Positions 739 to 42,616 of a stretch of 46,788 nucleotides of DNA are shown piece by piece; within the stretch, counting starts at the first letter, position 1, and the number at the start of each line of letters is the position of its first letter. Source of the stretch: a virus (lineage: Duplodnaviria > Caudoviricetes); the IMG/VR virus record IMGVR_UViG_3300045119_000148, positions 1-46,788 of that record; one strand, written 5' to 3'. Under the pieces are notes generated by a model. The model made no database searches, had not been told where the DNA came from, and saw only the letters and a list, made by a program, of their open reading frames with translations. The position numbers and the translations under genes are program-made.

Positions 739-3700
739 CTAGTACAGGCCGTTGTATTCGAGGATGAGGTCAGCCGCAACGTCGATACTCCCGACCGGGG
801 CGAACGTCGAGTCCGTGCGGTACTGCATCCCACCGCCGTTGTTGGCCACGAAGTTCAGCGGTGTGGCCAACACCAGAAATCCGTTCTGCCCACCGGCTGC
901 GATGGTCCCGATGTCCACGATGCTGCCACCGGCGATGGCACGCAGCACCAAGGTGCCTGTCGTCCACGGCGCAGACACGCGCCACGCCGCACCGAGAACG
1001 CGACCCGTCTTCGCATACATCGGGTTCGCCCGGTACGCCTCCGTGTACACGGGGTTGAACCTGCCCATCGCCACGTTGTTCGCGTTCGCCCCGATGTTGT
1101 CCACCATGAACCCGTCCATCCGCACAATCGAGCGGATGGTCTCAGCACGGTAGACCGCCATGTCGTCGATGAGGATGATGTCGCCAGCGGTCTGTGCGGG
1201 GAACGTCACGAACAGCATCGCCATCACGGCGTTCTTGGGGGAGACGACGCCAGCAAAGGACGGGTTGTACCGCTGCCACGACTGCGCCGTTCCCGACACG
1301 ACACTGCCGCTCAAGTTGGCGTCACCACCAATCTGCACGCCGTTGTAGTCGTACCAGCGCAGGTACAGCGCAGAGTTCGCCGTGTTGCCACCGGGATTGG
1401 AGGAGTAGCCGCACACCCAGCCCGTGCCCACGTACTCGGTGTTGCCATCGACCGGGAACTGAGCCGACGTGAGATACGACTGCGTCGCCATCGCACTCAC
1501 GCTCATCGACGCCTGCCCGGTGTGCGTGAACACGCTATTGGCGTCAGTCCGAGACACGGCGTTCGTCGCGCTCCAGCCGCGTGCGTTGCACGACGAGGTG
1601 GCGTCACGGACCTCAAAGCCGGGGTTGCCGACGAGGTTGCGCAGGTCCGCGCCCGACGAGATGGGCAGGATAGAACCACGCGGGGTGTCGATGAGGGAGT
1701 CGGTCTGGAGGTGCTTGGATGCAGGACTCCAGAGGTTGGCGTCACCGCCGAACATGAGGCCGTTGGCCCCACCATCGACGAGGTCACGCAGCCCGTTGGC
1801 GCTGCCGCGATAGCGCAGGATGCCGCCCTCGGAGCCGTCAATCTGCACGCCACCGGCGTCGATGATGACCGCCCCCACCGCGCTCGGTCCCCACGGGGTG
1901 GCAACGCTGGACTCCTCCAACTTGATGCCATCCCACCAGCACTGGGCACCAGCCGTGCCACCCGCCCGGACCACCACGTACACCGTCTGGTCCGATGGGC
2001 TCACCCACACCGGGGTGGCATAGCGGTTGACATCACGCAGGTCAGGCGTGAACCACTCGGCGTCACCCTGAATGGCCTGCACCGGCGGAGGCCCAGCACT
2101 GATGATGCTGGCGATGAGCGTGCCATCGGGGTTCGAGAGCGTGGCACCCCCACTGTCGGCCAGCCGGAACTGGGCACCCGAGTTGCCCACACTCTTCATC
2201 AGCCCAGTCAGGATGTACGACCTGCCAGCCCGCACCTGAATGGGCGCAGACGACATCACGTACGGACCGACTCCCGGCACCGTGCAGTGCAGCGAGCGCG
2301 AGCCGTACACGTACTCGCCGGTGTCGATGTCGTAGCCGCCAGCGGTGTTGAGGACGTATGCCCCACCGAGGTTGGCAGCCCACTTGTCGGCCACCTCGGT
2401 GCTGTTGATGGACGGGATGGTGACCTTGTCGAGGGTCGGACCAGCGGTGGCAGACGGGATGAACGTCGCCCGGTAGAAGACGTACCGTGCCTTGGGCACA
2501 CTGGACAGGGATGGATACCACGTGGCTGGCGAGGGGGCAGCCGTGGCCGTGGCGCTGGAGCCGTACTCGATGACGAGCGAGGCTCCCGACGGCACGGTGC
2601 TGGCAACGACCGGCGTACCCCAACTGGTGGGTGCAGCCCCGAGGTCACGCCGGTGGACGGTCTGACCCCAGCGTGGCGTAAAAGACTGGACGGCGCTCGC
2701 ATTCAGCGGGTCGCTCGTCTCGATGTAGACCGTGACGGCAACAGCCGTGCCGTTGGTGAGAGCAAGGGTACTGAGCAGCAGGCTCGTGGCACCGGAGGTC
2801 ACCAAGCCCGAGTCGTAGCCCGGAGCCGTGACCCGGTACTTGTACTGGGTCCCCGACCCGACGGTCCACTTCACCGTCAGGCGCGGTACGCCCGAGACGA
2901 ACGACATGTAGCGGGTCGTGTCAATGGTGACGGTCGGGTTGGCCTTGACGCTGAACGCCCGCTTGGCGCTGAACGGTCCGTAGCCGTTGGCGGCGTCAGC
3001 CGTGGCCACGTCCCACATGTAGGACACACCGCGAGGGAGCGCGGTCGGCCAGACCAGCGAGGCACCAGTACCACTGACCGTCTGTGTGGCACCAACCTGC
3101 GTGGTGCCAGCCGCGTCCCAGACCCGAACCTGTGCGCTCGCTTGCGGGTCACCCTGCGGGTCGCTGTGTGTCCACGTGAAGGTCGGCGTCTGGGTAACGG
3201 ACGCCGCTCCAGCCGCCGGGAGGTTCTGGATGGGGGCAACGGGCGGCGACTGAACGCTGTAGTTGATGGTGACGACGGAGTTCGAGTGCTGGTCGGACCA
3301 GATTTCCGTGTAGTCCGAGTTCGAGACTTGGTCGAACCCGAACACAATCTTCGATGCGTTGTTCTGCCAGTAGTACCTGATAGCCGCCGTGACATCGAGC
3401 GTCACCGTCCGGTTGGCAGTGGTGCCCGACGAGAACTGGACTTGGTCGGTGCCCGTCCAGCCCGCCGTGTCGGACCACTGGGTGGTGTTGCTCCCACTGA
3501 AGCCGGACTCGCACGACTGCGAGCCAGCGCCGCGCAGCCACAGGCCCGCGACCGTCAGGCGACGGCAGTAAATCTGGGAGTTGCGGATGCCGACGTGCTG
3601 GAAGTCGGTGATGTAGAAGGTGATGGTCGCACTGTCGATGGAGGTCCAGCCCTGCCAGCCAGCAGGGACCGGGAAGCGCATCATCGAGCGGTAGCGGGCT

Positions 3701-3804
3701 GAGCCCCACGACCCGACCGGCAGATGGGCACCCTGACCGGCACCGTACGCGGGTGACGCCCAGACTGCTGCGCTCGCCTCGCTGCCGACGCTGGTGGATG
3801 CCAT
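739..3804 (-). CDS. Tail / receptor-binding protein with beta-rich FN3-like and carbohydrate-binding-like modules
   Basis: 1021 aa, rich in S/T/G/W. Has a DNRLRE-like N-terminus (RSMMRF..IDSATITFY), a PTFTWTHSDPQGD FN3-like motif and an NLVGNPGFE CBM-like motif. Last gene of the tail module. Confidence 0.75.
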   Translation of the reverse strand: MASTSVGSEASAAVWASPAYGAGQGAHLPVGSWGSARYRSMMRFPVPAGWQGWTSIDSATITFYITDFQHVGIRNSQIYCRRLTVAGLWLRGAGSQSCESGFSGSNTTQWSDTAGWTGTDQVQFSSGTTANRTVTLDVTAAIRYYWQNNASKIVFGFDQVSNSDYTEIWSDQHSNSVVTINYSVQSPPVAPIQNLPAAGAASVTQTPTFTWTHSDPQGDPQASAQVRVWDAAGTTQVGATQTVSGTGASLVWPTALPRGVSYMWDVATADAANGYGPFSAKRAFSVKANPTVTIDTTRYMSFVSGVPRLTVKWTVGSGTQYKYRVTAPGYDSGLVTSGATSLLLSTLALTNGTAVAVTVYIETSDPLNASAVQSFTPRWGQTVHRRDLGAAPTSWGTPVVASTVPSGASLVIEYGSSATATAAPSPATWYPSLSSVPKARYVFYRATFIPSATAGPTLDKVTIPSINSTEVADKWAANLGGAYVLNTAGGYDIDTGEYVYGSRSLHCTVPGVGPYVMSSAPIQVRAGRSYILTGLMKSVGNSGAQFRLADSGGATLSNPDGTLIASIISAGPPPVQAIQGDAEWFTPDLRDVNRYATPVWVSPSDQTVYVVVRAGGTAGAQCWWDGIKLEESSVATPWGPSAVGAVIIDAGGVQIDGSEGGILRYRGSANGLRDLVDGGANGLMFGGDANLWSPASKHLQTDSLIDTPRGSILPISSGADLRNLVGNPGFEVRDATSSCNARGWSATNAVSRTDANSVFTHTGQASMSVSAMATQSYLTSAQFPVDGNTEYVGTGWVCGYSSNPGGNTANSALYLRWYDYNGVQIGGDANLSGSVVSGTAQSWQRYNPSFAGVVSPKNAVMAMLFVTFPAQTAGDIILIDDMAVYRAETIRSIVRMDGFMVDNIGANANNVAMGRFNPVYTEAYRANPMYAKTGRVLGAAWRVSAPWTTGTLVLRAIAGGSIVDIGTIAAGGQNGFLVLATPLNFVANNGGGMQYRTDSTFAPVGSIDVAADLILEYNGLY

Positions 3805-6800
3805 CAGATAGCCGTCATGGTGATGGTTGATGCCCCGGTCGTGAGGTTGATGTCAGCACCCTGCCGCGAGCCCGCCGCGTTCCAGTCGGCGGCGAGGTCC
3901 CACGTGTTGCTGACCGTGACCATCGCGCTGAACGCACCCAACTCGAACGAGGAGTTCTGCACGAGGTTGTGCCCACCCCGCATCTTGCCGAAGGTGACCG
4001 ACGAGGCGTCGATGCCAAGCGGCGTGATAGACACCACGGCCACCGGATTGAGCGGGTCGGTCAGGTCCCAGATGAACAGCCCGTCCTCGTCGAGCGTCAT
4101 CTTGTAGGTCGGGTCGGTCGGGTCGAGCAGCGCGATGCCGTTGGTGTCCCACGTACCGATGGGGTTGCCCCCACTGTCCACGACGGTGATTGCCACCACC
4201 TGCCCGACGCCAGCGCCAACCGTCAGCGAGCCAGCCGTCAGCCAGTCAGCACTCAACTTCCCGGCGAACAGGTTGGCAATCATCGCGTTGGTCCAGACCA
4301 GCGTGTCCGCCGGGATGGCCGTTGGACTCACCGTGCCGCCGGTGACCCAGCCCTTCTCGCCGTTGTTGACCGCGTCGGCGACCTTGACCGTCTCGTAGAT
4401 GTTGTTGCCGTCGGTGTCATCCGCGCCCGTGTCGTTGAGCGTGTTGCCCGACGTGTCCACGGAGCGCACGCGCACGTCGTACGACGCACCGTTGCTCACA
4501 CCGGCGACGACCAAGACCGTGCCCAAGACCTGCGACGACGACCACGACGCGCCCGACCCGGTCACCCGCCACTGGACCTCGTTGTAGGCGAGGTCAGGTG
4601 CGGGGTTCGGGTCCCAGTTGACCGCGAACGTGTTGTTGCCGGGGTAGGTCTGGATGCCCGACGGCGGCGTCGGACCCGTGTCGTCCGAGTCGGTGACGAG
4701 GGTGATGGTGTTCGACGGTGTCGCCTGTCGGTTGCCGGTCGAGTCCACCGCATAGGCCCGGACCCAGTACGTGGTGGCGGCAAGGACCGACGGCTGGATG
4801 ATGTTGGTGTCGAGCGTGCCGGTCTTGTCCACGCTCTGCGCTTGCCACTGGGTGGCCAAGGTCCAGTCGGGCACACCGCCAGACCCGAAGCGCGTGGACT
4901 GGATGATGAACTGGTCGAGGTCGGTGAGACCAACGGGTGGCGTGGCGTAGCCGACGACCGCCACCAAGTTCGTGAGCGAACTCCCGTCTCCCTGCTGGAT
5001 GCTCGTCGAGGTGACGCTCTTCAGGACGGGAGTCGGCGGCGGTGTGACATCAACGGTGGCGGGCGCACCGGCAGGTCCAGTCGGGCCAGCGGGACCGGTA
5101 CCTCCGGTCGCGCCGGTGGGACCCGGAGGCCCGGTCGGGCCGGGTGGTCCACTCCCACCAGCCGGACCAGTCGGTCCGGGGATGGCGATGGATGCATTCA
5201 CGCTGGCGTACAACGCTGGCGTGAGCGGTGTCGCCGTCGGCCACGTGACCGGGATGTTGTAGAAGATGCCGCCCGACGTCGGAGGTCCGGTCACTGTCAG
5301 GCGCAGCAGTCCAGCCGGGGTGAAGTCCAAGATGATGAAGTCGCCGGGAACGACCGAACCCCACGCCGCCGTGTGGTCATGGGCGGCGCTGTCAATCTTG
5401 GCAACCTGCAGGGTGTTGGCCCCACCAGCCACGACCGTGACTGCTGCCCCCACCTCGCCATCGGCGATGCTGCCAGCCGACACGGCCATCCATGCGTACG
5501 GCCCGACGATGCCCGACGCAGGACCCGGTGGTCCCGGCGGTCCGGCCATCGAACCAGTTTCCTCCCACGTCCCGTCGGGCTGCTTCTCGTAGACGAGACC
5601 GGTGTCGGTGTCGAGCCAGTAGATGCCGTCGTCGTCGGTGGTCGGCGGGTGGTCCTTCAGTTGCCACTCGGGGATGTCGAGGATGGGCGCAGACGGGATG
5701 AGGTCCGGGTTGGGGGGAACCGTATCCTCGCGTGGCAGCACCGAGAGGACGAGGTTCGAGTGCCCGTCCTGATGCGAGTTCCACGTCCAGCCCCAGACCG
5801 TCCAGTAGCCAGAGCCGAAGCGCGTGGTGTCAACGACCCCGCGCACGATGTGCATGGGGATGTGGTCGGTGATGTCCCACGAGTCCTTGACGTTGAGCCC
5901 ACCGACCCGCAACCCGAGACCCAACTGCTTGCCGACCTTGGCCACCTTCGACGCCGCCTGAGCAGACCGGCGCTGCAGGTCGTTGAGGTCGTCGATGTCC
6001 TGAAACAGCGTGGTGCTGGGCCACGCTCCGTAGGTCGCCTCGCTGATACCGGGCGCGACAGAGCGGGCGGAGTAGACCTTCAGTCCCTGTACCGTGCGCC
6101 CTGTCGCGTTGACAGCCGTGCCCCACGCGCCGAACGCCACCGTGCGGAAGCCCTGCACCAGCCCGCCGTACTCCATCCGCAGGTTGTCGCGGACGACACC
6201 GGGATTGAGCAGGACCCGCCACTTCCAGTTGCCGTTGACATCACGCTCGGCGACGAGCCGGGTTGCCCTCCCCGTGCCAGCCCGGCTGCTGTCGATGAGA
6301 CCGGCGATGAACGGGAGCCGCTGCTTGAACGAGGCGTAGATGGTGACGTGTTCGGTCATTGCCGCCACATCACCGACGGCGATGAACCCCAGCGGGCTGT
6401 TGGGCTTGGCCTGCTCCTTGGTCAACTGGTCCTTGACGATGAAGTCGATGGCCTTGTCGGCGTACTTGGCCCCACCTTTATCGACGGTCAGTTCGGCATC
6501 GACCGACGAGAACCGTTCCTCCACCATGCGCGACAGCACGGCGAGGTAGTCCTGCCCGTAGAAGACGACCTCGTCGTCGGTGGCATCGAAGTCGGTGATG
6601 AGCCCGAACGCGATGCCACGCCAGCCCTGCCCCGTGTGCAACTGCAGTTCGTAGTGGCACTCGTACGGCTCGATGACCGCTGCCTGCGGATGGATGGCAG
6701 GCAGCGTGAAGTAGAACTCACCGGCGGTGTTGTAGAACTCACTGGCCCCGACGTTGGCGGCGTCGGTCAGTTCGGCAAGGAGGGTGCCCGGTCCCCTACC

Positions 6801-11821: not shown

Positions 11822-14800
11822 CTACCGCACGGGCAACACGTCCTGAACGGGTGCCTGTGACTGGTCCTCGATGTTCCCACCCTGACCGGTGATGAACTGG
11901 CCCGCCGACTTCAGCAGTTCCCCGCCCATCCCCGCGACCTCGCTGACGGTGCGAATGGTGCCGAGTGGGCCGACTGCGTACTGAACGGCATCCATCGCAC
12001 CCTTGGTGTAGTCGATGGGCTTGATGGGTAGACCCTTCGCCTGCAGCGCCTCGTTGTCCAGACCCTGCTCGGCGATACGTCGCACCGGCAGCGAGGCGTT
12101 GGCCGGGATGTCGTTCGGTGTGGCGGGAAACATCATCGACATCAGCAGGAACGCCTGCTTGTTGTCGTCGAGAAACTTCTTCCACGACGGGTCGTTCTGG
12201 CTCTGGACCCTGATGGTGTCACTGATTTCACGGGCCACGTTCCACGCGAGGAACGGCGTGGTCATGCCGAACGGGCGCAGTGCGAGGAAGCGCACCATCT
12301 CGGGCAGGATTTTCCCCCACATGTACGAGGCCGGATACAGCCCGATGTAGGGGTGGTTGATGCTGCGCTCGAAGGCGCTCCGGTCGTGCTTGTAATACTG
12401 GGTCGCGTGGGCTTCCTCCCACCCGGAGCGCACCACCTGCCGTCCAGCCTGCCGCAGCACCTCCTGCTCGTTGGAGTACGGCACGGTCTCGACACCCGGT
12501 CGCTGGAACATGCGGTCCAACTTGGCCTGCATCTGGGGCGACGTGCGGATGGGCGGCATTCCACTCACCGTCCGCTGCTTCTGGGTCAACTGCAGCCAGT
12601 TGCGGAAATGCTCGAAGGCGTTGTTCATGTCGGGGTCGGTGGCCACACCCCGGTTCACCCAGTCCAAGACCTGCTGGACGAAGAACTCCTCCTGCGGCTT
12701 GCCCCACGCGCCGGGGTTCGGTGAGCCCAACCCGGCCCGCATGGCGGTGGCCCGGTTGCGCAACTGGGTGGCGGCGCTCCTGTTGGTGTGCGTGGCAGCC
12801 CGCGTCTCCAGCGCCTGAGCAGCGGTCTCGACATCGGTCGAGTACCGCTCGTACTCCCGCGTGATGGCATCGCGCAGCGACGGGTCCATGCCCGCGATGC
12901 TGAAGACGTGGATGAGTTCGTGCAGCCCGGTCAGGGCGTCGGCGGCTCCGAACCCTCGGACGACAGCGGACTGGGCTCCGGTGGGGGTGGTGGTACCAAA
13001 GACCTGTCCGCCTCGCTTGTCTTCGAGGGTGGTGGTGATGGGGTCACCGAGGACGGCTCGGCGGGTGTTCTTGGGGGCGACTTCGTTGAGCCCCCACTGG
13101 ACACGCTCGTCGTGCGCGGCGCGAAGACGGTCGAGGACTGCCCCATCGGGGGCGACTCCCCGTGATGCAAGACGACTGAGCGTGGCATCGAGATGTCCTC
13201 CCCAATCCGGTTCACCGTTGACGATGGCGGGTCCAGCCTTGTACGTCTTGCCGTAGTCCACCCACATGTCGGTGTCCAGACCCTCTTGGTCGAGCCCCTT
13301 CTGCGCGGCTTCGACCATTGACCTCACATAGTCCTCGTCCACCGTCCCATCGTCGAGCCGGGGCAGCGAGTGCTGGTCGTCGATGAACGAAATCTGCCAC
13401 GTGTGGTTCGGCATCTCGATGGCGGTCGCGCCCCGGATGTCGTCACGGATGGACGCCAGTCCCTGCGCCACGTGCTGCGCATCGCTGAATGACTGCAGGC
13501 TGCTGGACGGGAACGAGAGCGTCACCCGCGCATCGTGGTCGGCAGCATCGACACCCGCCGTGACGGCATCCACCGGGCTGAAGTGCCAGACCTCGCGCTG
13601 GCGCATGACGTACGACATGATGTCGGCGAGGTCGTTGCCCCGTATCGCGCTGCTGAGCATGGTCAGTGGGACCAACGGCTGCGGCGTGTCGGCGTCCCAG
13701 AACCCGATGCCCCGGTCGTCCAGCCCATCCACGACGATGCCGAAGTTGTCGCGCATGTCCTGCATCAGCCCGACCTGCACACCACGCATGAAGGCGTGAC
13801 GCTCGGCCCGGTTGGCTGGCTCGTTGAGCAGGTCGAGGACCGGGTTGGCCCACGACATCGTCGTCCCCTCGGGGAAGTAGATGTTGGCCGGGATGGTGCG
13901 CAACTGGCTGGCCACGTCCTGTGCGGGCATCGAGGTCGCCACCCGGCCACGCACCTCGCGGGCCTTGCCCGCCATCAGCGCCATGTCGGCAGCGGTCCAG
14001 ACCTTGTACCCGCCCAAGCCCTCGGCGTTCGCAGCCTTGGCCATCGCGTTGTAGTAGCCGACGAGGTAGGCGTGCGTCTCGTCGCTCTTCGAGGTGAGGG
14101 TCAGGCCGGTGGTGTCAACGCCGTTCTCCTTCAGGTCAGCCAGCGTCTCGGGCGTGACGTAGCCCGCACCCTCGTACGCCGCGTCGTCCGCAACGATGGG
14201 CATGGACCCGTCCATGCGCCCAATCGCTCGCCGGTTGCTGTTGCCCAAGAGAACGTCCATCGCGTCGTTGATGTCGGGCGGGACGTTGGGCACGTCGAAC
14301 GGGTACTTCAGCCCACGCAGCAGGTGCTGCGTCTGGAGTAGCGCGACCTGCGCATCCTTGCTCTCACGCTCGGCAGCCATCTCCGTGGCCGGGCGGAGCC
14401 CGCGCTGCCACGCCTGCTCCAGCGTATGGATGAAGAGGGTGACCGCGCCCCGCCCACCCCGTGAGGGCATCGCCGCTGCGATGGACGCCAACGCCCGCGT
14501 GTCGTTGCTGTTGAACACCTCGTCGGGGTCGAACCGCACACCATGCTCGTCGGCAGTGTCGGAGGTGTGCATCAACTCTTCGATGCGATAGCGGGTGTCG
14601 TCCCACGCCTCGGAGAAGGACGGCAGTTGGTCCTCGTCGATGACCGCCTTGATGTCCTCCAGCCCCTGCTCGGGCGTGATGCGCCCGAACCTGCGCTGGC
14701 CCACCACGACGGTGCCCTCGGGCGGGCGGGCTGCCTCGGCCTTGGCAATCTCCTCCTGCGCCACCTCGCGCAAGCCCTCCTGCGTCTCGGGTCGGGCACG

Positions 14801-17800
14801 TGTGGTCAGGTCGATGAGCGCCGCCGGGTCGGTGGCGGCAAGGTGCTGGGCGTAGGCGACGTTGCGCTCGTGGATGGGCGGGTCGCCAAGCATCAGGCGG
14901 TTCACGCCCGTGACGCGAGCCTCGCCGTCGGGCACAACCGTGAGGTGGATGATGTTGCCACCACCGTAGGCCCGTGGCTTGTCCTCCCGCCTGATGATGC
15001 GGAAGGGCTGGTCCCTCGGGAGCAGGTGTTCGCCCTCGTAGCCCTCGATGAGGTTCATGTGGTACCCGGCGGGCAGTTCGTAGTGGATGATGACGCCCTG
15101 ATGGTTGGCCCCACTCTGGAACTTGTGGCCACCGCCCTCGGCGAAGTCCATCGCCGACGACTCGTCATTGCTCGTTGAGACGAATGCCGGGTCCTGCAGG
15201 ATTTCACCGGGCTGCTTGTCGAACTCGGGCCGGATGTCGGTGCCCCACTCGTCCATCGCTCGGCTGATGTTGACCCCACGGTGGAACGTCCCCGGCTCGC
15301 GTAGCACGCCCTTCTGGATGGAGTGGTCGAGATACTCGACCAGTTGCTGGATGCGCTCGTCATCGAGGTGGATGGCGTCAGGGTCGAGTTCGAGCCCGCG
15401 CAGGAAGGTGTTGATGTTGGCGTAGATGGAGCCCTTGTAGTCCTCGGTCGCGCCCTGCTCCGCGATGGTGAGCATCTTCTTGAAGTCGATGGTCCACGGC
15501 GAGGTCGCACCCGCCTCACCGCCCTGCTGGAACAGTTCGTCCAGCCACGGCATCTGCTGGTAGCCCTCACGGAGGGCAGGCGTAGGAACCCCCTTCACCT
15601 CACCGACAGCCTGCTGGATGGGGACCCAGCCGTTCTCGGTGTAGACCTCCATCGGGACATCCCCGTAGTTGAGGTCTTGGCTGAGCAGGTAGTCGTGGGA
15701 CTTCTGGCGCTTCAGGTTGGTGGCCGGATGCTCCCGCTCGGCCTCGACTGCGCTGCGGTCAAAGCGGATGAGGTGCTGCGCGGAGGCGTCGTAGTTGGCA
15801 ATGGCACGCAGGGGATTGGTGCCGACCTGCTCGTACTGGGTCCCGATGGCACCAGAGCCGATGCCCTTGGCGGCGAACTTCAGGTTCTCCATCGTCTGCT
15901 CGGTGACGGGAATGTAGAGCAGGTCCCGGTTCTCGGACCCAGCCGTGATGGCATCGACGTGCTTCTGCAACTCGGGCGGCAACGAGTCGGCCACCCCGCC
16001 GTTGATGGAGTGACGGATGAGCCACGTCTTGTACGGCTTGTCGCCACCCTCGTTCTTCAGGATGGCGTGACCGATGTCGGACCGAACGTCGGTCAGCGCC
16101 TGTGGGGGCAACACCCCAGCGTCCACCGCCCAGCGCGGGATGTCATCGAAGTGGAGCCGGATGAACTCCTCCTCGGTGAGGTTCTTGCCAGCGGCTGCTC
16201 CCTGCACGAACGCCCGCGTGGCCTTGATGACGGCATCACGTGCGCGGCGAGTGGCCACCGCCGTCGGCCCGGTCAGTCCCCGGAGATACGTCGCACGGTG
16301 GCCGCGCCAGAACTCATCCACCGTCTGCCCTGTCGCCAGCCGCCAGATGTCCTCGGCTGCCTTGTCGCTGACCTTGCCCACGTGGGTGTCCATCCCGGCA
16401 CGGCTGACCTCGCTCAGCCAGTCGTCCTTGGTCATCGCCCGGAGGTCGCGCTGCAGCGCCTCGCCCGACGCCAGCCCCTCGGACTCCCGTGTGTCCAATC
16501 CCTGCTCGGTGCGAACGTGGTCGAGCAGTTGCTCCACGTCGCCGAACGTGTAGTCGCCCCGCCGGGAGCCGTCGGTGGTGAGACGAATGCGCCCCTGTCC
16601 CACGTTCTTCAGGTTGAGCAGGTCGTGGGTGAGACCAATCGCGTGACCGTCCTTGTCGGCCAGCGACAGGTTGGCTGCCAGCCAGCGTTCGGCAATCTCG
16701 GCCCGGTCCACCGTGCCGTACTCGTAGGCGAGGTCGCCCCAGTTGCGCTCGAACTGGTCACCCCAGATTTCATGGAACGCGGCGTACAGGTTGTCGCCGA
16801 TGATGCGCCGTGCCTCCATGCCAGCGGCTGCCTGCTTGCGCTCGGCGATGGCTGGCTTGGTGCCCTTGATGCGGCCCCAGACACTGCCCGCCCCGAAGTG
16901 GCTGCGGGCCTCGGCGGCTTGGTAGATGCGCATGGCGTTCATCTCGGCGTTCTCAGCCAAGAGACCGTCGGGCTCACGTGAGGCGAACACGTACTGGCGG
17001 ATGGCGTTGTACGTCGCCAGCCCCTGCTGGTACTTCGCGGCGTCCCGGCGCAGCGGCAGGGGGACGCCGCGCATGTAGTCGAGGATGTACGGCTCGACCA
17101 ACTCCATCGACATGAACACCGGGTTCAGCGTGAAGCGCATGAGCGGGTACAACTTCTCCGACAACTGGCCCCAGTAGTTGCCTGCCGCGCCGGGCGCTCG
17201 GGCCTTGACCATGCCGGTGAACTTCTGGGTTGCCCCCACCAGCGACACGTCGCCCTCCATCGCCCGGAGGAAACCCGTGACGACCTGACGCTCGGTGAGT
17301 TTGGAGGCGACGTTGCCGTACACCGACGTGTTGCCCTTCACGTCTTCGAGGACACCGTGAACGGCGTCCATCATCTGGTCGGGCGACATGCCCCGTGGGA
17401 GCAACCGGCCTTCCTGCGCCTCGAACATCAGCGCCTTGAACAGCCTGTCGGCGAGAGCAGGCGGCAGGGCGATGTTGCCCGACTCCTTCGACGCCATGTC
17501 GGTGATGAACCGGCGGCGTTGGTTCCACAGGATGCGCTCGCCCCGGATGCCCCTGAACATCGACATGTTCATGGACTGCCAGCGGCTCACCCGCTTGGCT
17601 GCCGGGATGCCGTCCGCCCAGAACTGCAGCCACGGCTGCGCGTTCTTGATGCCGCCGTCGGCGTTGTGGGTGATACGCCACTGGGCGTCGAGCGGTGCAT
17701 TCTCGGGGATGCCGTTGGCGAGGCCGTACTCGAAGTTCGAGCCGTCCTTCACCCAGTCCTGCAGTTCCTGCGGGATGTCGGTGCGGATGTTCCCGGCTGC

Positions 17801-19828
17801 GTCCTTCAGGTTGATTTCCTGCGGCAGCGACGAGCGGTTGGTATCGAGGTAGTCCCGCACGTCGTGGATGAGGTCGGCGTCCTTGACGGTCTGCCGGTTC
17901 ATCCAGTTGAAGTCGTCGTAGTTCTCGGTGAATGCCCTCACCTTGGCCACGTCGCCAGCCTTGATGGCGGCGTCCAGTTCCTTCACCCGCAGGTTGGTCA
18001 GGGTGCGGGGCGTAATCATCGTGATGTCGTGCGGGTCGATGTCCTTCGGCAGCACGCCTCGGGCAGCAGCATCGTGGATGGCAGCCATCACGTTGGTGTG
18101 CAGCACCTTGCCCTTGGTGTAGTAGTACAGCCCGTGGACGGCCATCGCCATGTCGGCGGAGACCTTGCCCACACGAGCCGCCACCTTGGCTGGGTCCACC
18201 TGCAGGATGGCAGCCAACTTGTTGACGGTCTGCTCGCGCATCTGGTCGGCGGGCAGGGACGCGACCCGGATGTCCTTGGTCTTCTCGACCTGCGTCTCGA
18301 TGTACTTCCCGATGTTGGTGTCGTACGCCCCACCGGCCAACTGCGCCCGCGTGGCCTCGGCGGTGTTCAGGGTCGGGTGCTTGGGGATGGCGTTGACGCG
18401 AGCCGCGTCGTTGGCTGTCTCGCCCGCCACTGTCTCCTGCATCCCGTTCGCGCCCCACGTTCCGACCGCCTCCATGATGCGGTCGCCGCCATCGGTGGCG
18501 AGGTCGTCAGCGATGGACGTGAGGTCGCGCACGACGTTGGGCTTCAGCGCCGCGACGACCGCCGTGGACGCCGCCATGTGCAGGGCTTCCATCGACCGCT
18601 GCGCAGCCCGCGACCCGCTGAAGAAGTTGATGGGGTCGCTGGCCTTGGCAATCTTGTCGGCCACCTTGTAGACGATGTTCTGGGTCGCCGTGTCGCTGAT
18701 GGGACCGAGGGCGCTCGTCCCGATGCGCTCCGAAATCTTCAACTTCAGGTGGTTGGGAACGTCCTCGCCGTTGCCCACACGGTCGAGCAGGTCGTGGTTG
18801 ACGGCCTGCTTCATCACGCTCAGGTCGCCACGCGACAGGTTGACCGCACTCAGGTCTTGCCCGTCCTGCGCCAGACGAGCAAGTTCGCCCACCCGCGTGC
18901 CGTCCCCCGCCAGCGCGGCGACCGTGCTGCCCTCGCGTGCTGCAGCCGACGAGAAAATGCGGGCGATGTCAGCCGTTCCCTCCACGGCACCGGCCACCGC
19001 ACCCACGCCCAGCGATGCCCAGTTCACGGGGTCAGTCAGGATTGACCACACCGTGTTGGCAATCGGGTCGTTCGTGAAGCCGCGCTGTGACAGGACCAGT
19101 TCATCCAAGGCCCGGTCACGGGTCCACTCGCCCGAGTCAATCTTCTGCTGGATGTCGTCGGGCAGCGCCCCACGCGCACCAGACATCCCGGCGTACGTCC
19201 GCTGGATGGCCTCACCGACCAGACCGGGGATGTTGAGGATGGACTGGAACGCCCCGCCCAAGTTGGTCGGTATCTTCAGTGTGTCGCGCAGGATGTACGG
19301 GGTGAACTGCTCGATTTGACTGTTGGCCGCGTCGATGATTGGTGCGAGGAACGGCACGCTCTGGATGCCCACCCCGCCAGCGATGGACAGCGGTGCCTCG
19401 ATGGTCTTGCCGATGTCGGCCCCGATGGTCTGGCCTGCCTCGCCCTGCCCCAAGATGCCGCCGACCGTTGACCCCACCGCACCCAGCAGTCCGGCGAACA
19501 GCCCGCCGGGCGTACTCGGCGAGTAGTACCGGGCCACCGACCCCAGCGGACTGTTGTCCTGCGCCGGGTCGATGGGGATGGGCGAGTTCATGCGCGAGGT
19601 AGAGAGCGGGTCGAGGAGATTGATGTCCTCCTTGCCCACACTAGCGAACTGGCGGACCTGCGTGTTGCCGTCAGCCGGACCGTAGTAGACCGCACTGCCG
19701 CCGTTGCGGGTCGAGACCGGCCCCAAGCCGTACGAACTGGCGGGTGCGTTCGAGCCCGACCCGAAGCCGAACCCCCCACCCGAGGTGGAGGCTGCCGCGT
19801 TCGCGCCCCACGTCCCGCCGAGGGTCAC
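11822..19828 (-). CDS. Giant (2668 aa) polyvalent internal virion/ejection protein with ADP-ribosyltransferase and HExxH metallopeptidase-like domains
   Basis: VIP2-like ART segment YKGSIYANINTFLRG..FHRG..FVSTS..YEGEHLLPRD at about 14930-15460. GLHELIH..EEFF at about 12680-12925. Located in the head module. Confidence 0.75.
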   Translation of the reverse strand: MTLGGTWGANAAASTSGGGFGFGSGSNAPASSYGLGPVSTRNGGSAVYYGPADGNTQVRQFASVGKEDINLLDPLSTSRMNSPIPIDPAQDNSPLGSVARYYSPSTPGGLFAGLLGAVGSTVGGILGQGEAGQTIGADIGKTIEAPLSIAGGVGIQSVPFLAPIIDAANSQIEQFTPYILRDTLKIPTNLGGAFQSILNIPGLVGEAIQRTYAGMSGARGALPDDIQQKIDSGEWTRDRALDELVLSQRGFTNDPIANTVWSILTDPVNWASLGVGAVAGAVEGTADIARIFSSAAAREGSTVAALAGDGTRVGELARLAQDGQDLSAVNLSRGDLSVMKQAVNHDLLDRVGNGEDVPNHLKLKISERIGTSALGPISDTATQNIVYKVADKIAKASDPINFFSGSRAAQRSMEALHMAASTAVVAALKPNVVRDLTSIADDLATDGGDRIMEAVGTWGANGMQETVAGETANDAARVNAIPKHPTLNTAEATRAQLAGGAYDTNIGKYIETQVEKTKDIRVASLPADQMREQTVNKLAAILQVDPAKVAARVGKVSADMAMAVHGLYYYTKGKVLHTNVMAAIHDAAARGVLPKDIDPHDITMITPRTLTNLRVKELDAAIKAGDVAKVRAFTENYDDFNWMNRQTVKDADLIHDVRDYLDTNRSSLPQEINLKDAAGNIRTDIPQELQDWVKDGSNFEYGLANGIPENAPLDAQWRITHNADGGIKNAQPWLQFWADGIPAAKRVSRWQSMNMSMFRGIRGERILWNQRRRFITDMASKESGNIALPPALADRLFKALMFEAQEGRLLPRGMSPDQMMDAVHGVLEDVKGNTSVYGNVASKLTERQVVTGFLRAMEGDVSLVGATQKFTGMVKARAPGAAGNYWGQLSEKLYPLMRFTLNPVFMSMELVEPYILDYMRGVPLPLRRDAAKYQQGLATYNAIRQYVFASREPDGLLAENAEMNAMRIYQAAEARSHFGAGSVWGRIKGTKPAIAERKQAAAGMEARRIIGDNLYAAFHEIWGDQFERNWGDLAYEYGTVDRAEIAERWLAANLSLADKDGHAIGLTHDLLNLKNVGQGRIRLTTDGSRRGDYTFGDVEQLLDHVRTEQGLDTRESEGLASGEALQRDLRAMTKDDWLSEVSRAGMDTHVGKVSDKAAEDIWRLATGQTVDEFWRGHRATYLRGLTGPTAVATRRARDAVIKATRAFVQGAAAGKNLTEEEFIRLHFDDIPRWAVDAGVLPPQALTDVRSDIGHAILKNEGGDKPYKTWLIRHSINGGVADSLPPELQKHVDAITAGSENRDLLYIPVTEQTMENLKFAAKGIGSGAIGTQYEQVGTNPLRAIANYDASAQHLIRFDRSAVEAEREHPATNLKRQKSHDYLLSQDLNYGDVPMEVYTENGWVPIQQAVGEVKGVPTPALREGYQQMPWLDELFQQGGEAGATSPWTIDFKKMLTIAEQGATEDYKGSIYANINTFLRGLELDPDAIHLDDERIQQLVEYLDHSIQKGVLREPGTFHRGVNISRAMDEWGTDIRPEFDKQPGEILQDPAFVSTSNDESSAMDFAEGGGHKFQSGANHQGVIIHYELPAGYHMNLIEGYEGEHLLPRDQPFRIIRREDKPRAYGGGNIIHLTVVPDGEARVTGVNRLMLGDPPIHERNVAYAQHLAATDPAALIDLTTRARPETQEGLREVAQEEIAKAEAARPPEGTVVVGQRRFGRITPEQGLEDIKAVIDEDQLPSFSEAWDDTRYRIEELMHTSDTADEHGVRFDPDEVFNSNDTRALASIAAAMPSRGGRGAVTLFIHTLEQAWQRGLRPATEMAAERESKDAQVALLQTQHLLRGLKYPFDVPNVPPDINDAMDVLLGNSNRRAIGRMDGSMPIVADDAAYEGAGYVTPETLADLKENGVDTTGLTLTSKSDETHAYLVGYYNAMAKAANAEGLGGYKVWTAADMALMAGKAREVRGRVATSMPAQDVASQLRTIPANIYFPEGTTMSWANPVLDLLNEPANRAERHAFMRGVQVGLMQDMRDNFGIVVDGLDDRGIGFWDADTPQPLVPLTMLSSAIRGNDLADIMSYVMRQREVWHFSPVDAVTAGVDAADHDARVTLSFPSSSLQSFSDAQHVAQGLASIRDDIRGATAIEMPNHTWQISFIDDQHSLPRLDDGTVDEDYVRSMVEAAQKGLDQEGLDTDMWVDYGKTYKAGPAIVNGEPDWGGHLDATLSRLASRGVAPDGAVLDRLRAAHDERVQWGLNEVAPKNTRRAVLGDPITTTLEDKRGGQVFGTTTPTGAQSAVVRGFGAADALTGLHELIHVFSIAGMDPSLRDAITREYERYSTDVETAAQALETRAATHTNRSAATQLRNRATAMRAGLGSPNPGAWGKPQEEFFVQQVLDWVNRGVATDPDMNNAFEHFRNWLQLTQKQRTVSGMPPIRTSPQMQAKLDRMFQRPGVETVPYSNEQEVLRQAGRQVVRSGWEEAHATQYYKHDRSAFERSINHPYIGLYPASYMWGKILPEMVRFLALRPFGMTTPFLAWNVAREISDTIRVQSQNDPSWKKFLDDNKQAFLLMSMMFPATPNDIPANASLPVRRIAEQGLDNEALQAKGLPIKPIDYTKGAMDAVQYAVGPLGTIRTVSEVAGMGGELLKSAGQFITGQGGNIEDQSQAPVQDVLPVR

Positions 19829-30726: not shown

Positions 30727-31084
30727 CGACAGCCCGCTGGTGTTCGCCGTCGATGCCAAGCACAGCATCCATGTCAAGCCGCCAGAGCGTCCGGTCTTTC
30801 AGAGTGCACCGGTCAGGAGTCGCATATCCAAGGCGCAGGAGGAGTACGACGCCAAGAGGCGTCCTCAGGCAGCGAAGTTGTACAGACTGCTTAGGGACTG
30901 TGCTGAGAAAGGTTCATCTTGGCGTGAGTGCTGGGCTCTCGGTGAGGGCAATGAGGGCTGGGATGTGGGACCAATCGTCATCTGGCTGCGCTCTAGGAGT
31001 GTGGACATCGAGGCGGTCTACGACCCTGTGCGTGGCGAGACGCGGTTCTACCTGAGGCTCGCTCAGGCTCGCAGTGGACGGTAA
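30719..31084 (+). CDS. Hypothetical protein, possible winged-helix DNA-binding protein
   Basis: The C-terminus (IVIWLRSRSVDIEAVYD..RFYL) resembles a helix followed by a wing. Confidence 0.5.
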   Translation: MSDDSPLVFAVDAKHSIHVKPPERPVFQSAPVRSRISKAQEEYDAKRRPQAAKLYRLLRDCAEKGSSWRECWALGEGNEGWDVGPIVIWLRSRSVDIEAVYDPVRGETRFYLRLAQARSGR

Positions 31085-31150
31085 CCCCTGAGTTACGGTT
31101 CCCCCCACCTCACGTTCTAGAGGGGCAGCGTTCCACACACACACTCGCTT

Positions 31151-31826
31151 GTCACCAAAGGTGGCGGGGGTGGGGATTGAGCGTCAGCGGAGTTTTTGGC
31201 CTCGGCGCGGAGTACATACACAGACCTCGGTCTGTGTATGTATGAGCGCACGGTGAGAGCAACAACGAAGTTGTTGCTCTCACATTCCCTCGTGCCGGAG
31301 CCTATGGCTATAGGCCCTTAGGGCCAATAGCCAATGGCCAATCGGCGATGGGGCTGACAGTCACCGGTAGCCTAGGGAGTCACGGCGACCAATGGACCAA
31401 GGTCCATAGGTCTATGCGCAGGTGCATCCAGTTCCAAGGAACTGGACGCCACGTGTGACTGAGTTCTAAGGAACTCAGTTCAGCCACTGACCGAAGCGGG
31501 GTCTGAAACCCCAGCACCATGTCTACCCCCTTTAGGGGTAGGTCGCCGAACCCTATGTGAGGGCAACACCGTAGGTGTTGAGGCTCTGCTTCCAAATCCT
31601 TCCAATCCTCATGTCATGTCAGTAGCGCCCACTTCCCTCAGGAAGTGGGCGCTACTGCACTGATACTCGGAGGACTACGTCCTCCGTAAGACTTTCGGTG
31701 AGACCAACAAGTGACAAGTCACTTGTCGCGCACATGACCCCAACTCACCCCCTCTGAAGACTACGTCTTCAGGACACTCAGTCCATCAGCCTCCCGCCAG
31801 CCCCCTGTTCTGAGACTACGTCTCAG
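31151..31826. repeat. Array of about 14 near-perfect short-loop palindromes (hairpins/cruciforms)
   Basis: Examples: 31213-31242 (14 bp), 31253-31283 (14 bp, GAA loop), 31427-31446, 31458-31479, 31564-31580 (GTA), 31620-31657 (17 bp), 31668-31686, 31707-31726, 31754-31772, 31810-31826. Confidence 0.9.
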
Positions 31827-31959
31827 GTCGTCGCCGACCGAAAGCCTCGCGCACGTCCCTGCTTGCACGAGAGTCGCGCACAACCCACCCTGCGCTCTTC
31901 GCCCGCGTGACTTTTGGGCGCGTGCATGAGTCGTTCCACGACTGGTACGCCCGTACACG

Positions 31960-32479
31960 TTGGTTGAGCCGTTGACGCCGACCTAGGGCAGCGGTTCCAG
32001 CCACCGACGGGCCACCGGCATGTTGCCGGACCGGGGACGGATGGAAACTCAGGCAAGGCAACGTTCGACCCGACACGAGGTCGCTGCTCGCAGTCCTTCG
32101 GACCGCAGAGCGCCGGGCAACGGACGTTCACCTACCTGACAGAGACGCGAAACACCCTTTGGGTGTTAGGAACCTCGACCGTGCCCACTGCGATAGCAGT
32201 GGGTCGCTGAAGAGGCCGTGGGACATGCCGCCCCCTGACGTAAGTCAGGGCGCTGCCCGGTGAGAGTGCCGGGCGGTCGGAGTCTGCGCCACGGTCGTCA
32301 GACCGTCATGTGAGATGTATGGGTCTTCCGTAGGAAGGGAGAACCGCAAGCCTCGCCGGTTACTGACAGGGTCACGGGTACACCGACATCGAAGATGCCA
32401 CGTCATCCGTGGAAGTAGCGCCAGCAAGTGTGCTGTCCGGTCTGTAAGACCAGACAGATGCGTCACACGAGGCTGCCTC
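31960..32479 (+). ncRNA. Putative large structured non-coding RNA, class unassigned
   Basis: Nested long-range stems, G-U pairs that work on the plus strand, UUCG/GCAA/GUAA loops and no credible ORF. The 5' boundary is uncertain. Confidence 0.6.
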
Positions 32480-32554
32480 AGGGCTCCAGTCCCCACCAAA
32501 GGTGGGGCGAACCCTCTGACGATGACCTCGGGGACGGGGTCGAAAGGGAACCTT
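32469..32554 (+). ncRNA. Type III hammerhead ribozyme-like motif (predicted cleavage after C32479)
   Basis: CUC at 32477-79; stem I AGGG/CCCU; core CUGACGA at 32516-22 plus one inserted U; stem II GACCUCG-GGGA-CGGGGUC; GAAA at 32542-45; stem III CCU/AGG extended by GAGG/CCUU. Confidence 0.6.
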
Positions 32555-32557
32555 TCG

Positions 32558-32797
32558 ATGGCAACGCTCACCGCCGAGTCCTTCGCCGCTGCTGAAGCAG
32601 CGTGGCTCGCCACCAAACCCTGCACGGTCCCTTCGGGACACCGCGCCGGTTTCATGGGGTTCTGCTCTCACTGTGAGACAGATGTCCTCTTCGAGGACAG
32701 CCCGGAGTACGAGGCTCTGTTCCCCGATGCCGACCAGCCCGGCTGTAAGCCGGGTTGCAAGGGACCGAACCCTTGCGGAGAGACCTGCGACATCTGA
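32558..32797 (+). CDS. 79-aa Cys-rich (putative metal-binding) early protein
   Basis: MATLTAESF..C..H..CSHC..CKPGC..C..C. The putative RBS AAAGGG lies within a hairpin, and a 9-bp hairpin (32794-32814) follows the gene. Confidence 0.6.
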   Translation: MATLTAESFAAAEAAWLATKPCTVPSGHRAGFMGFCSHCETDVLFEDSPEYEALFPDADQPGCKPGCKGPNPCGETCDI

Positions 32798-32847
32798 AGC
32801 CCCATAGGGCTTCAGCACACACCCCCATCCCTTCAGGAGGACACGAA

Positions 32848-32937
32848 GTGTCTCAGTGCGAAAGGTCGGACTGCAATCCGGCGACCTGTCCCCATTCCTC
32901 TCACCGCCGACCCAAAGGGTCGAAGCGCACCCACTAG
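32848..32937 (+). CDS. 29-aa Cys/His micro-protein (not separately listed in the ORF track)
   Basis: RBS AGGAGG, GTG start; MSQCERSDCNPATCPHSSHRRPKGSKRTH. Confidence 0.5.
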   Translation: MSQCERSDCNPATCPHSSHRRPKGSKRTH

Positions 32938-32991
32938 CCGAAGGCTAGTCCAACCCTCTGGATTGGCCCCTTAGGGGCCAACGTAGAGCGT

Positions 32992-33042
32992 TTGACTCGC
33001 TCTTGGTGCCACTGGTACAGTGGTGCTATCAATCCCCATCCC
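32992..33042 (+). promoter_or_regulatory. Sigma70-type early promoter with conserved leader
   Basis: TTGACT-18 bp-TACAGT with an extended TG, then 6 nt, then ATCAATCCCCATCCC. Confidence 0.65.
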
Positions 33043-33070
33043 ATTGCCCTAAAGGGCAGAAAGGAACGGC

Positions 33071-34561
33071 ATGGCGAACATCGCCAAACTGCCTGACGGC
33101 ATAGCCGTCGCAGCGAACCCTCCCGGCATGGTGGTGCCCTACGGGCCACACCTGACGGCGGCGTTCGAGGCGACGACCGGCTATGCCATTCTGGCGAAGC
33201 CAGATGGCACGGCTCTGGCCAAGATTGGTGTGACCAATCGGCCTCTCGTTCAACTCGTAGAGTTGGACCCCATCACGGTTCCCTATGTGAACCGGTTCAT
33301 CAGCCCTTCGGGGCTGGTCATCATCAAGGACTGGCGGACCGGGCTCTACCGGACCAAGGTCCGGCGTGGTGGCAAGGCCAAGCGGGCACTGCCTCTGGCA
33401 GTGGTCACGGAGACGCCCAAGGCGGCTTCAACGCACACTGCAGCACCGAAGGTGCAGCAGGACGCACCGAAGATGTCGGCTGGTGCCGTCATCACCGTCA
33501 GTGGCGATACGGAGTATCGCTCGACAATCCCCGGCATGGTCATGCTCCCCAAGGTCACCCTGAAGGGTGCCGGACGGGGCAACACGGACTGTGGCGGCAT
33601 CATCCTGCCCACAGAACAGTTCACTGTTCTGGAAGATGCGTGGCACCTTGCACAGCAGGGAGACCCTGCTGCGGTGCTGCTGACCGGTCCCGCAGGGACC
33701 GCCAAGACGATGCTCGTCAGAGCATTCGCCGCTTATCTCGGTGTCCCCTACCTGAAGGTAGACGCCGGGGCCGTTCGGACTGCCGACGATTGGGCCGGTG
33801 CCTTTAGGCAAGACCCCAACACGAAGACGTGGGCTCACCGCTGGTCGCCTTTGGCGATGGCTCTGCGTGAGGGCAAGCCATGCGTCCTGCACATCGACGA
33901 ACTCACCCGCACAGAGACCCCCGCTGCGCTCAACGCCTTCATGGGTCTGCTCGACGAGACAGGGACCCTGTTGGTCCCTGATGCCAATGCCGTCCTGACA
34001 ATGCCGAAGGGCATTCTGGTGGTGGCAACGGCCAACATCGGGCCAGAGTTCGTCGGAACTCTGCCTCTGGACGGTGCAGTCCGGCAGCGGTTCCCCTACG
34101 GGGTTCGCATGGCCAATCCCAGTGAGGCCAATGAGTCGAAACTCATTGTCAAGCGAACCGGGGTCAGCGACGAAGTCGCTGTGGCTCTGGTCCGCATGGC
34201 CAATCAGCAGCGGCAGCATCGGGACGATGCTCAGCAGTACCCGTCCGGGGCCATCATCAGCACTCGTATCCTGCTTAGCATCGCTAAGCGGATTGCGGTC
34301 CGCCACGCTGACCCCCGCGAGGCTGTCATCTCTGTCCTGCAAGGACAGTTCGACCCCGGCGACGACGCCGCTCTCACCGTGGTCATCGACTCGCAGTTTC
34401 CGAAGAAGCCGGTGGCTACGCCACCGGTGGCTGCCGGTGCTGCCTCGATTGTGACGGAACGTCACTGGTTCAACGGCTCGGGCCCGGCTTGCGCTTACGT
34501 GCTGAGCAACGGCACCACTTGTGGTGCCCCGGCCAAGAGCCCTATCCACTTCGGCTCCTGA
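33071..34561 (+). CDS. MoxR/CobS-like AAA+ ATPase with N-terminal extension
   Basis: Walker A GPAGTAKT, Walker B LHIDELTR, sensor VATAN, arginine finger LDGAVRQRF, and ISTR. Confidence 0.9.
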   Translation: MANIAKLPDGIAVAANPPGMVVPYGPHLTAAFEATTGYAILAKPDGTALAKIGVTNRPLVQLVELDPITVPYVNRFISPSGLVIIKDWRTGLYRTKVRRGGKAKRALPLAVVTETPKAASTHTAAPKVQQDAPKMSAGAVITVSGDTEYRSTIPGMVMLPKVTLKGAGRGNTDCGGIILPTEQFTVLEDAWHLAQQGDPAAVLLTGPAGTAKTMLVRAFAAYLGVPYLKVDAGAVRTADDWAGAFRQDPNTKTWAHRWSPLAMALREGKPCVLHIDELTRTETPAALNAFMGLLDETGTLLVPDANAVLTMPKGILVVATANIGPEFVGTLPLDGAVRQRFPYGVRMANPSEANESKLIVKRTGVSDEVAVALVRMANQQRQHRDDAQQYPSGAIISTRILLSIAKRIAVRHADPREAVISVLQGQFDPGDDAALTVVIDSQFPKKPVATPPVAAGAASIVTERHWFNGSGPACAYVLSNGTTCGAPAKSPIHFGS

Positions 34562-42111: not shown

Positions 42112-42407
42112 GCGTCATTCGCATCACGGACAAGGCAGCCTCATCGGAAGAAGTCGTCACCCAACTGCGCAAGACGGCGGACTTCATCGAGGGACTCGGC
42201 CTTGTCGGTGAGGCCCGCGTCATCGTGACCGGTGAACTCAACGTCGAGGTCCACTACGAGCCCCCGGCATGGGAAGAGAAGCGTCGGCTCATCGCCGACA
42301 TCAGGCGGATGCTCCCGTTCCTTCGTGCCGAACATCCCGAGTTGGTCTCACAGATTGAGGTCGCCATGAAGCAGGTCGAACAGGAAGAGGAGGAAGTCGC
42401 GTCGTGA
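42108..42407 (+). CDS. Hypothetical protein (99 aa)
   Basis: GTGA overlaps on both sides. Confidence 0.6.
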   Translation: MSVIRITDKAASSEEVVTQLRKTADFIEGLGLVGEARVIVTGELNVEVHYEPPAWEEKRRLIADIRRMLPFLRAEHPELVSQIEVAMKQVEQEEEEVAS

Positions 42408-42616
42408 ACAACGGTGACCTCGACCGCATCTTCGACTCACATCCACCCAAGAACGACGCCGAAGCACTGGCTCACGAGCAGGTGCGCCAAGCCTTCAAGG
42501 ACGTTGCCCGCACCATGAGCAACCTGCCGCAGGGCAGGGAGCGCAGCATCGTCCTCACCAAGTTGGAGGAGGCATCGTTCTTCGCACACGCCGCCATCGC
42601 CCGCGACCCCCAGTAA
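42404..42616 (+). CDS. Acb2/Tad1-like helical-hairpin protein (putative immune-signal sponge)
   Basis: 70 aa; RIFDSHPP..LPQGRERSIVLTKLEEASFFAHAAIAR matches my recollection of the family's R-E-x-S-x3-TKLEEA-x3-A-x-AAIAR pattern. Confidence 0.65.
   Translation: MNNGDLDRIFDSHPPKNDAEALAHEQVRQAFKDVARTMSNLPQGRERSIVLTKLEEASFFAHAAIARDPQ

Follow-up and report, generated by a model that had tools for sequence, protein, structure and literature searches.

A structured phage RNA family with a predicted hammerhead ribozyme at its 3' end

The DNA analysed here (the window) is a virus record of 46,788 bases with a CheckV completeness of 99%. Its minus strand carries the portal, capsid and tail-fibre genes, and its plus strand those encoding a primase-polymerase, AAA and vWA proteins, RusA, an exonuclease and endonuclease VII; from this gene content, the RNA element described in this work would belong to the early region. 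The element sits in the gap between the end of a plus-strand ORF at 31084 and the start of a 79-aa ORF at 32558, with the primase-polymerase gene upstream, and it heads a long plus-strand gene block; the genes it stands in front of are small and probably early. In database searches no similar DNA and no matching capsid protein were found among cultured phages, a capsid profile search showed the family to be sparse, and the AAA matches among cultured phages show about 30% identity over half of the protein. Elsewhere in the same plus-strand block, positions 42404-42616 encode a protein with the Acb2/Tad1 hairpin domain (PF24729, E 1e-14), which probably works as a sponge to counter nucleotide-signal defences. 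On the minus strand (11822-19828), a 2668-aa protein located among the virion genes carries an ADP-ribosyltransferase domain (PF03496) at residues 1448-1613, and outside this domain it matches no family. The features of the gap and of its downstream border are the following:

31213..31727, strand not assigned: palindrome array, perfect palindromes with stems of 7-17 bp
31731..31959, plus: upstream part of the cassette, a possible promoter or 5' extension of the RNA
31961..32003, plus: hairpin B, variable stem, UGAC bulge, 3-bp stem and 7-nt loop with the palindrome CUAG
32004..32048, plus: variable hairpin domain with a conserved GAAAC at its end (alignments, pairing judged by eye only)
32049..32139, plus: domain C, exchangeable, with covariation
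32151..32167, plus: hairpin D, position kept, sequence variable
32177-80/32370-73, plus: helix J, closing a junction (32177..32373) that holds hairpin E, the insertion and arm F
32184-32203, plus: hairpin E, inside the helix J junction
32204..32293 (approximate limits), plus: two-hairpin insertion, window genome only
32294..32368, plus: arm F, covarying outer helices around a core (32310-32356) whose asymmetric internal loops are invariant
32397..32419, plus: hairpin H, a covarying stem of 3 bp with a 5-nt loop, flanked by invariant GCC and AGUAGC
32433..32457, plus: variable 3' hairpin with compensatory changes relative to locus L001
32476..32547, plus: type III hammerhead, stem III 32476-78/32545-47, predicted cut after C32479
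32480-83/32512-15, plus: hammerhead stem I, with an internal loop and a distal hairpin
32516-22, plus: hammerhead core, followed by an extra U (32523), stem II (32524-41) and GAAA (32542-45)
32558..32797, plus: first downstream ORF, 79 aa, Cys-rich, for which correct-frame searches find no family
32992..33021, plus: sigma-70-like promoter of the AAA-vWA genes (promoter scan)

Relatives were gathered by AAA protein searches, which led to 2 loci from viruses, 28 from metagenomes and 1 from a genome; the comparison set was formed by the 19 loci (window included) whose AAA gene is preceded by at least 750 nt, and 12 others are too short to judge the RNA element. The hammerhead, arm F and hairpin H occur in identical order in 18 of the 19, with 13 distinct core sequences. 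The sole exception is L002, a complete phage genome with a 44% identical AAA protein, which has neither arm F nor the hammerhead core; in another locus that is cut short (L013), hairpin H and the hammerhead are visible. Since every locus was collected through the AAA gene, an association of the RNA with AAA is built into the sample. Motif scans of viral contigs returned the L001 contig as the only real match, 6 of 7, 12 of 13 and 46 of 47 matches being due to chance, and across these scans and the L002 genome the RNA core had no match outside the phage family collected through AAA. A scan of GTDB yielded one short contig with insufficient upstream DNA. At the equivalent place in L002, about 780 non-coding bases that carry neither hammerhead nor arm F come after a strong sigma-70-like promoter (3594-4420, z -1.0); this is possibly a different RNA. 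Regarding the host, the AAA relative L042 (50%) gives a weak hint, its 3-kb contig being part of an Acidimicrobiia MAG.

The 3' border of the element is defined by a type III hammerhead (32476-32547) that had been overlooked in the sequence-only reading that flagged the stretch 31960-32479; the predicted cut base, C32479, is the exact 3' end of that stretch. The plus strand of the window has a single CUGAnGA...GAAA core, and 18 other loci carry one at the same place (19 of 19 examined). In all of the 14 cases, the NUH triplet is CUC or GUC; the U16.1-A15.1 pair is there, as are stems I to III with stem III open, and these position numbers, as well as A9 and G10.1 below, follow the usual hammerhead numbering. 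Among the 12 distinct sequences, 138 of 144 anchored pairs are formed, the maximum in shuffles being 119, and all six unformed pairs correspond to the fourth pair of stem III. The full descriptor gave one match in the window and one in 200 simulated genomes. Loop II is complementary to the bulge of stem I, with at least 3 bp in 8 of 10 own pairs versus 37% of cross pairs (permutation p 0.0055, in a sample that includes close relatives); stem I-stem II contacts of this kind were described as pseudoknots by Perreault et al. 2011 (PMC3088659), who also report that 14 of 18 consensus hammerheads were active in vitro. An extra U follows A9 in 9 of the 12 sequences, and in the other 3 there is a bulge after the first pair of stem II. 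Insertions of up to 1-2 nucleotides in the hammerhead core are known (PMC10085705), and an extra U between A9 and G10.1 was reported to increase cleavage 3-4-fold in a viroid hammerhead (PMC3705267). The hammerhead does not score above the cut-off of RF00008, perhaps because this model is poorly suited to a long bulged stem I. Folding models give stem III, which has only 3-4 bp, a probability of 0-0.17, and in 3 of the 12 sequences, among them that of the window, an alternative hairpin of 7 bp competes for GAAA.

Upstream of the hammerhead, the best conserved part is arm F, present in 18 of the 19 loci with cover. Over 13 sequences, 97.8% of its 273 cells are paired, with 34 two-sided changes and 0 of 500 shuffles reaching this level; these shuffle counts, here and for domain C, are not probabilities, because the structures were drawn from these same, related sequences, of which there are only 13 distinct cores, and relatedness inflates the controls. 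Slid controls gave 30-46% of pairing, and arm F was recovered unaided by RNAalifold. Its inner loops are invariant across all lineages. At 32318-32319 and 32346 a bulged U or G co-varies with G or A across the helix in 18 of 18 loci, which suggests a non-canonical pair. Helix J was found by a complement search that also returned some weaker alternatives; 12 of 13 sequences form all 4 of its pairs, using 7 different helix sequences (it was missed in L015), and it was not recovered by RNAalifold on a MAFFT alignment. This pairing indicates that the arms belong to one fold. The 3-bp stem of hairpin H is kept in the 19 loci examined. As shown by the aligned sequences, an invariant core of some 150 nt is formed by arm F, the closing helix J and hairpin H.

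The periphery is much more variable. Domain C consists of a long arm, two CA internal loops (one of them a CA/UCA loop resembling that of twister-sister) and a junction with an invariant loop. In 10 sequences, 99.4% of its 169 cells are paired, with 15 two-sided changes (0 of 500 shuffles); it was found in 13 of 18 loci, and in L029, L033, L035, L036 and L039 its place is taken by unrelated folds. Two of these replacements, at about 430-540 in L033 and about 55-150 in L029, are multi-branched domains unrelated to each other, and neither has a match in Rfam. Hairpin B is present in 16 of 18 loci as two variants, is absent at its place in L020 and was not seen in L029. From hairpin B to the cut, the RNA measures 416-463 nt in 11 relatives and 519 nt in the window. 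Upstream of it (31731..31959), a -35-like hexamer was observed by eye at a similar offset in 13 loci with no consistent -10, the consensus fold is weak, and a promoter scan of this segment found none.

When the window is compared with L001, the palindrome array (measured over 31085-31730), the first ORF and the downstream spacer are 93%, 97% and 95% identical, whereas the segment 31731-31959, the RNA and the hammerhead show 50%, 70% and 71%. With 50-71% identity inside and 93-97% in the flanks, the cassette has most likely been exchanged between phages as a block. Modules are mixed as well: the distant locus L020 carries the domain C sub-hairpin of the window genome. The array itself probably acts at DNA level and lies outside the RNA. 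Many of its palindromes have GAA, GTA or AA loops, and the changes of loops and arms seen in L001 keep the symmetry; relatives carry different arrays at the same place, and an origin, a genome end or an injection signal are possible roles for them.

Taken as a whole, these data uphold the original proposal of a multi-domain structured plus-strand RNA, given the family-wide covariation, the G-U polarity and the absence of an Rfam match. Covariation was found in four separate parts (arm F, domain C, the hammerhead and helix J), and compensatory changes among the collected homologues are many. The 520 nt fold better than shuffles, with z of -4.3 for the plus and -4.0 for the minus strand; as both strands fold well, z alone cannot assign the strand of the RNA. 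The polarity of the G-U pairs is informative in this respect, since 24 G-U versus 2 A-C pairs were counted on the plus strand, as had been claimed. Of the tetraloops put forward as a further sign of the plus strand, cUUCGg is weak evidence: read on the opposite strand, it becomes a C-GAA-G triloop hairpin of the type found in the palindrome array upstream.

The helices quoted in the sequence-only reading are all complementary at the positions given there, and they fared differently when confronted with the relatives. The helix of its domain 1, which corresponds to domain C, stands with pair probabilities of 0.82-0.96 and the covariation mentioned above. In contrast, those proposed to close domain 2 (32176-83/32290-97) and domain 3 (32309-20/32458-67) have a pair probability of 0 and conflict with covarying helices of the relatives, namely GACC with GGUC (32177-80/32370-73, helix J) and GUGAG with CUCGC (32310-14/32352-56, arm F). 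Much of that domain 2 corresponds to the insertion limited to the window genome. The 5' hairpin is retained on weaker support (80% paired, 9 two-sided changes). In terms of energy, the comparative model has -231.9 kcal/mol and the earlier one -224.6 (7.3 apart); the free MFE, -241.2 kcal/mol, lies 9.3 below the comparative model and matches neither. The comparative helices also have a probability of 0 in the single-sequence ensemble of the window, and arm F and helix J are absent from its MFE.

The claim that the RNA falls in no known family agrees with the search of Rfam, in which neither the window nor 15 loci gave a match at gathering level; at relaxed E-values only weak matches appeared, with none in 9 loci. 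The covariance models of GOLLD, ROOL and OLE gave no match, and ARAGORN found neither tRNA nor tmRNA in the window genome, in agreement with the exclusion of both from the sequence. An HDV-like ribozyme (RF02682) was discarded, since it scores 17.6 bits against a cut-off of 44 and the strand that would form its P4 pairs elsewhere with covariation. Likenesses to group I introns, the hairpin ribozyme, T-boxes, tetraloop receptors and c-di-GMP riboswitches were also rejected, their motifs being either not kept across lineages or unscored by Rfam. No reading frame over the RNA is conserved: from the same ATG, which lies inside arm F, the frames run for 5-200 aa in 12 loci, so that the RNA is not a conserved coding region, and coding in a 160-aa frame over it was rejected. 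On the basis of sequence comparison, therefore, this appears to be a real RNA family outside Rfam with a 3' end defined by a hammerhead, a variant of the large non-coding RNAs of phages.

The gene next to the RNA varies between lineages. At least five different kinds of ORF come directly after the RNA among 12 relatives, and in the window the Shine-Dalgarno-like AAGGGA of the 79-aa ORF overlaps the 3' strand of hammerhead stem III. An ORF for a 26-28-aa Cys/His peptide (32848-32927, plus strand, in the window) recurs near the hammerhead in several relatives, and directly after it in L020, L022 and L028. Boxes similar to those of the AAA promoter were seen by eye in relatives. The suggestion that the RNA works with the adjacent Cys-rich proteins or with the AAA-vWA module is thus not supported, as the first ORF varies, AAA has its own promoter and the L002 phage carries an AAA gene but neither arm F nor the hammerhead; we found no tie of the RNA to these genes. 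The first two of these facts favour an RNA that is itself the product over a leader specific for a gene.

Our preferred reading, to which we would give a little less than an even chance, is a non-coding RNA released by its ribozyme that acts in trans by binding protein. The host RNA polymerase would transcribe it early in infection from just upstream of the RNA, and the predicted cut after C32479 would free a non-coding RNA of 420-520 nt. The products would be this RNA, ending in a 2',3'-cyclic phosphate, and a downstream mRNA starting with 5'-OH. The invariant internal loops may constitute the binding surface, as decoy or scaffold, for a host protein or complex, and the fast-changing periphery could track a host target.

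The main competitor, appreciably less probable, is a leader acting in cis, in which the nascent RNA would serve as an antiterminator on RNA polymerase or control the first genes, the hammerhead afterwards detaching the leader and insulating the mRNA. The model for such antitermination is the put RNA of phage HK022, which promotes read-through of terminators in cis. The position of the RNA at the head of a long plus-strand gene block fits this idea, as does the fact that in 9 of 12 sequences the first ORF has its Shine-Dalgarno-like sequence within the 3' strand of stem III; in addition, the hammerhead of haloviruses HF1/HF2 lies 13 nt before the first early ORF and matches a mapped 5' end (PMC3088659). 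However, the promoter of the AAA genes is about 500 nt downstream, no plus-strand terminator was found in 30900-33200, and the first ORF is not the same between relatives. Predicted access to the Shine-Dalgarno sequence does not increase after cleavage either, and its release by the cut was accordingly rejected as a mechanism.

Two further proposals are improbable to a similar degree. One is a multimer made only of RNA through palindromic kissing loops, like the cages of GOLLD and ROOL. CUAG is kept in the loop of both hairpin B variants and is frequent in the RNA region (0-5 copies per locus), and symmetric palindromic kissing loops join the chains of GOLLD and OLE (10.1101/2024.12.08.627333); nevertheless, no switch from one palindrome to another was seen among the loci, hairpin B was not seen in its place in the two loci noted above (L020 and L029), the non-coding DNA of these phages is rich in short palindromic hairpins throughout, and no covarying pseudoknot was found. 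The other is that domain C is a second, twister-sister-like ribozyme that cuts at C32129/A32130 and together with the hammerhead excises an RNA of 255-350 nt, whose 5'-OH and cyclic-phosphate ends could be joined into a circle by a host ligase. The full version, a ligated circular core RNA acting on the host in the first minutes of infection, is slightly less probable still. In its favour, the domain C loop, G-C-A opposite U-C-A, is invariant in 13 of 13 sequences and matches G5, C6, A7, U61, C62 and A63 of twister-sister L1 (PMC5660989), and the would-be ends of L017 and L031 can pair along 14-16 bp, starting at the equivalent of A32130, at about -24 kcal/mol, in the best 1% of 22-mers. Nonetheless, in the remaining 9 of 11 sequences, window included, this end pairing is unremarkable, and position 64 is always a C that pairs with G5 instead of the U that in twister-sister forms a non-canonical G5-U64 pair leaving N1 of G5 free; a comparable change nearly abolished the activity of a twister-sister-like ribozyme (PMC11620745). 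Likewise, the G59-A8-U61 triple is not kept, given that positions 8 and 59 vary, the candidate for SL4 (G31, C32, A33; a GNRA-like fold with A7) has A and G in its loop at those positions, RF02681 gives no match at E 10, and 5 of 18 loci lack domain C altogether.

A natural aptazyme, whose upstream domains would sense a signal and switch hammerhead cleavage and hence the first genes, is also quite unlikely: stem III is short, the competing hairpin described above occurs in 3 of 12 sequences and, in L017 and L031, stem III has its 5' strand covered by a long helix, but these competing helices are not conserved, the downstream genes lack a common function and there is no match to a riboswitch family. 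The idea that the folds work as single-stranded DNA (injection, origin or packaging signal) and continue the palindrome array, next to which they lie downstream of the primase-polymerase gene, draws on the good folding of both strands and is the least probable, because a hammerhead functions only as RNA, the G-U polarity speaks for RNA and the invariant asymmetric loops are unlike the perfect palindromes of the array.

Large structured RNAs of bacteria and phages are rare and their functions are open, and the RNA reported here adds a family outside Rfam. Its invariant core and exchangeable domains make up a natural series of deletions and swaps that shows what to mutate. It would also give phage hammerheads a concrete job, an open question in the literature, that is, making the 3' end of a non-coding RNA.

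Among known systems, a literature search that covered few subscription journals turned up no account of this RNA, nor of any large RNA from a phage that ends at a hammerhead. The candidates of Fremin et al. 2023 (PMC10690425) were likewise predicted from phage intergenic regions by covariation, although they are 29-151 nt long, unlike this RNA; a fragment of it could be among them, although six of its motifs were not found in the part of the supplement that was searched. The likeness to twister-sister (RF02681) is confined to the G-C-A/U-C-A internal loop, and the pairing register of domain C differs. GOLLD and ROOL are the closest in kind, being large multi-junction non-coding RNAs of phages and prophages whose function is unknown, and in GOLLD, as in this RNA, the 3' region is conserved and the 5' region variable. 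The present RNA, of 416-519 nt, is shorter than the ROOL average of 581 and than GOLLD, often over 800, and it differs from both in that the window genome has no tRNAs, the RNA ends at a hammerhead and Rfam has no match for it; the GOLLD and ROOL literature retrieved in our search makes no mention of hammerheads. With the type III hammerheads described in phages and prophages (PMC3088659) it shares the full core, the three stems, the stem I-stem II contact and the location just before a start codon, and it departs from them in the extra U or bulge, the bulged stem I, the stem III of 3-4 bp and the lack of an RF00008 score. In those systems the hammerhead flanks genes, whereas here it closes a large conserved RNA.
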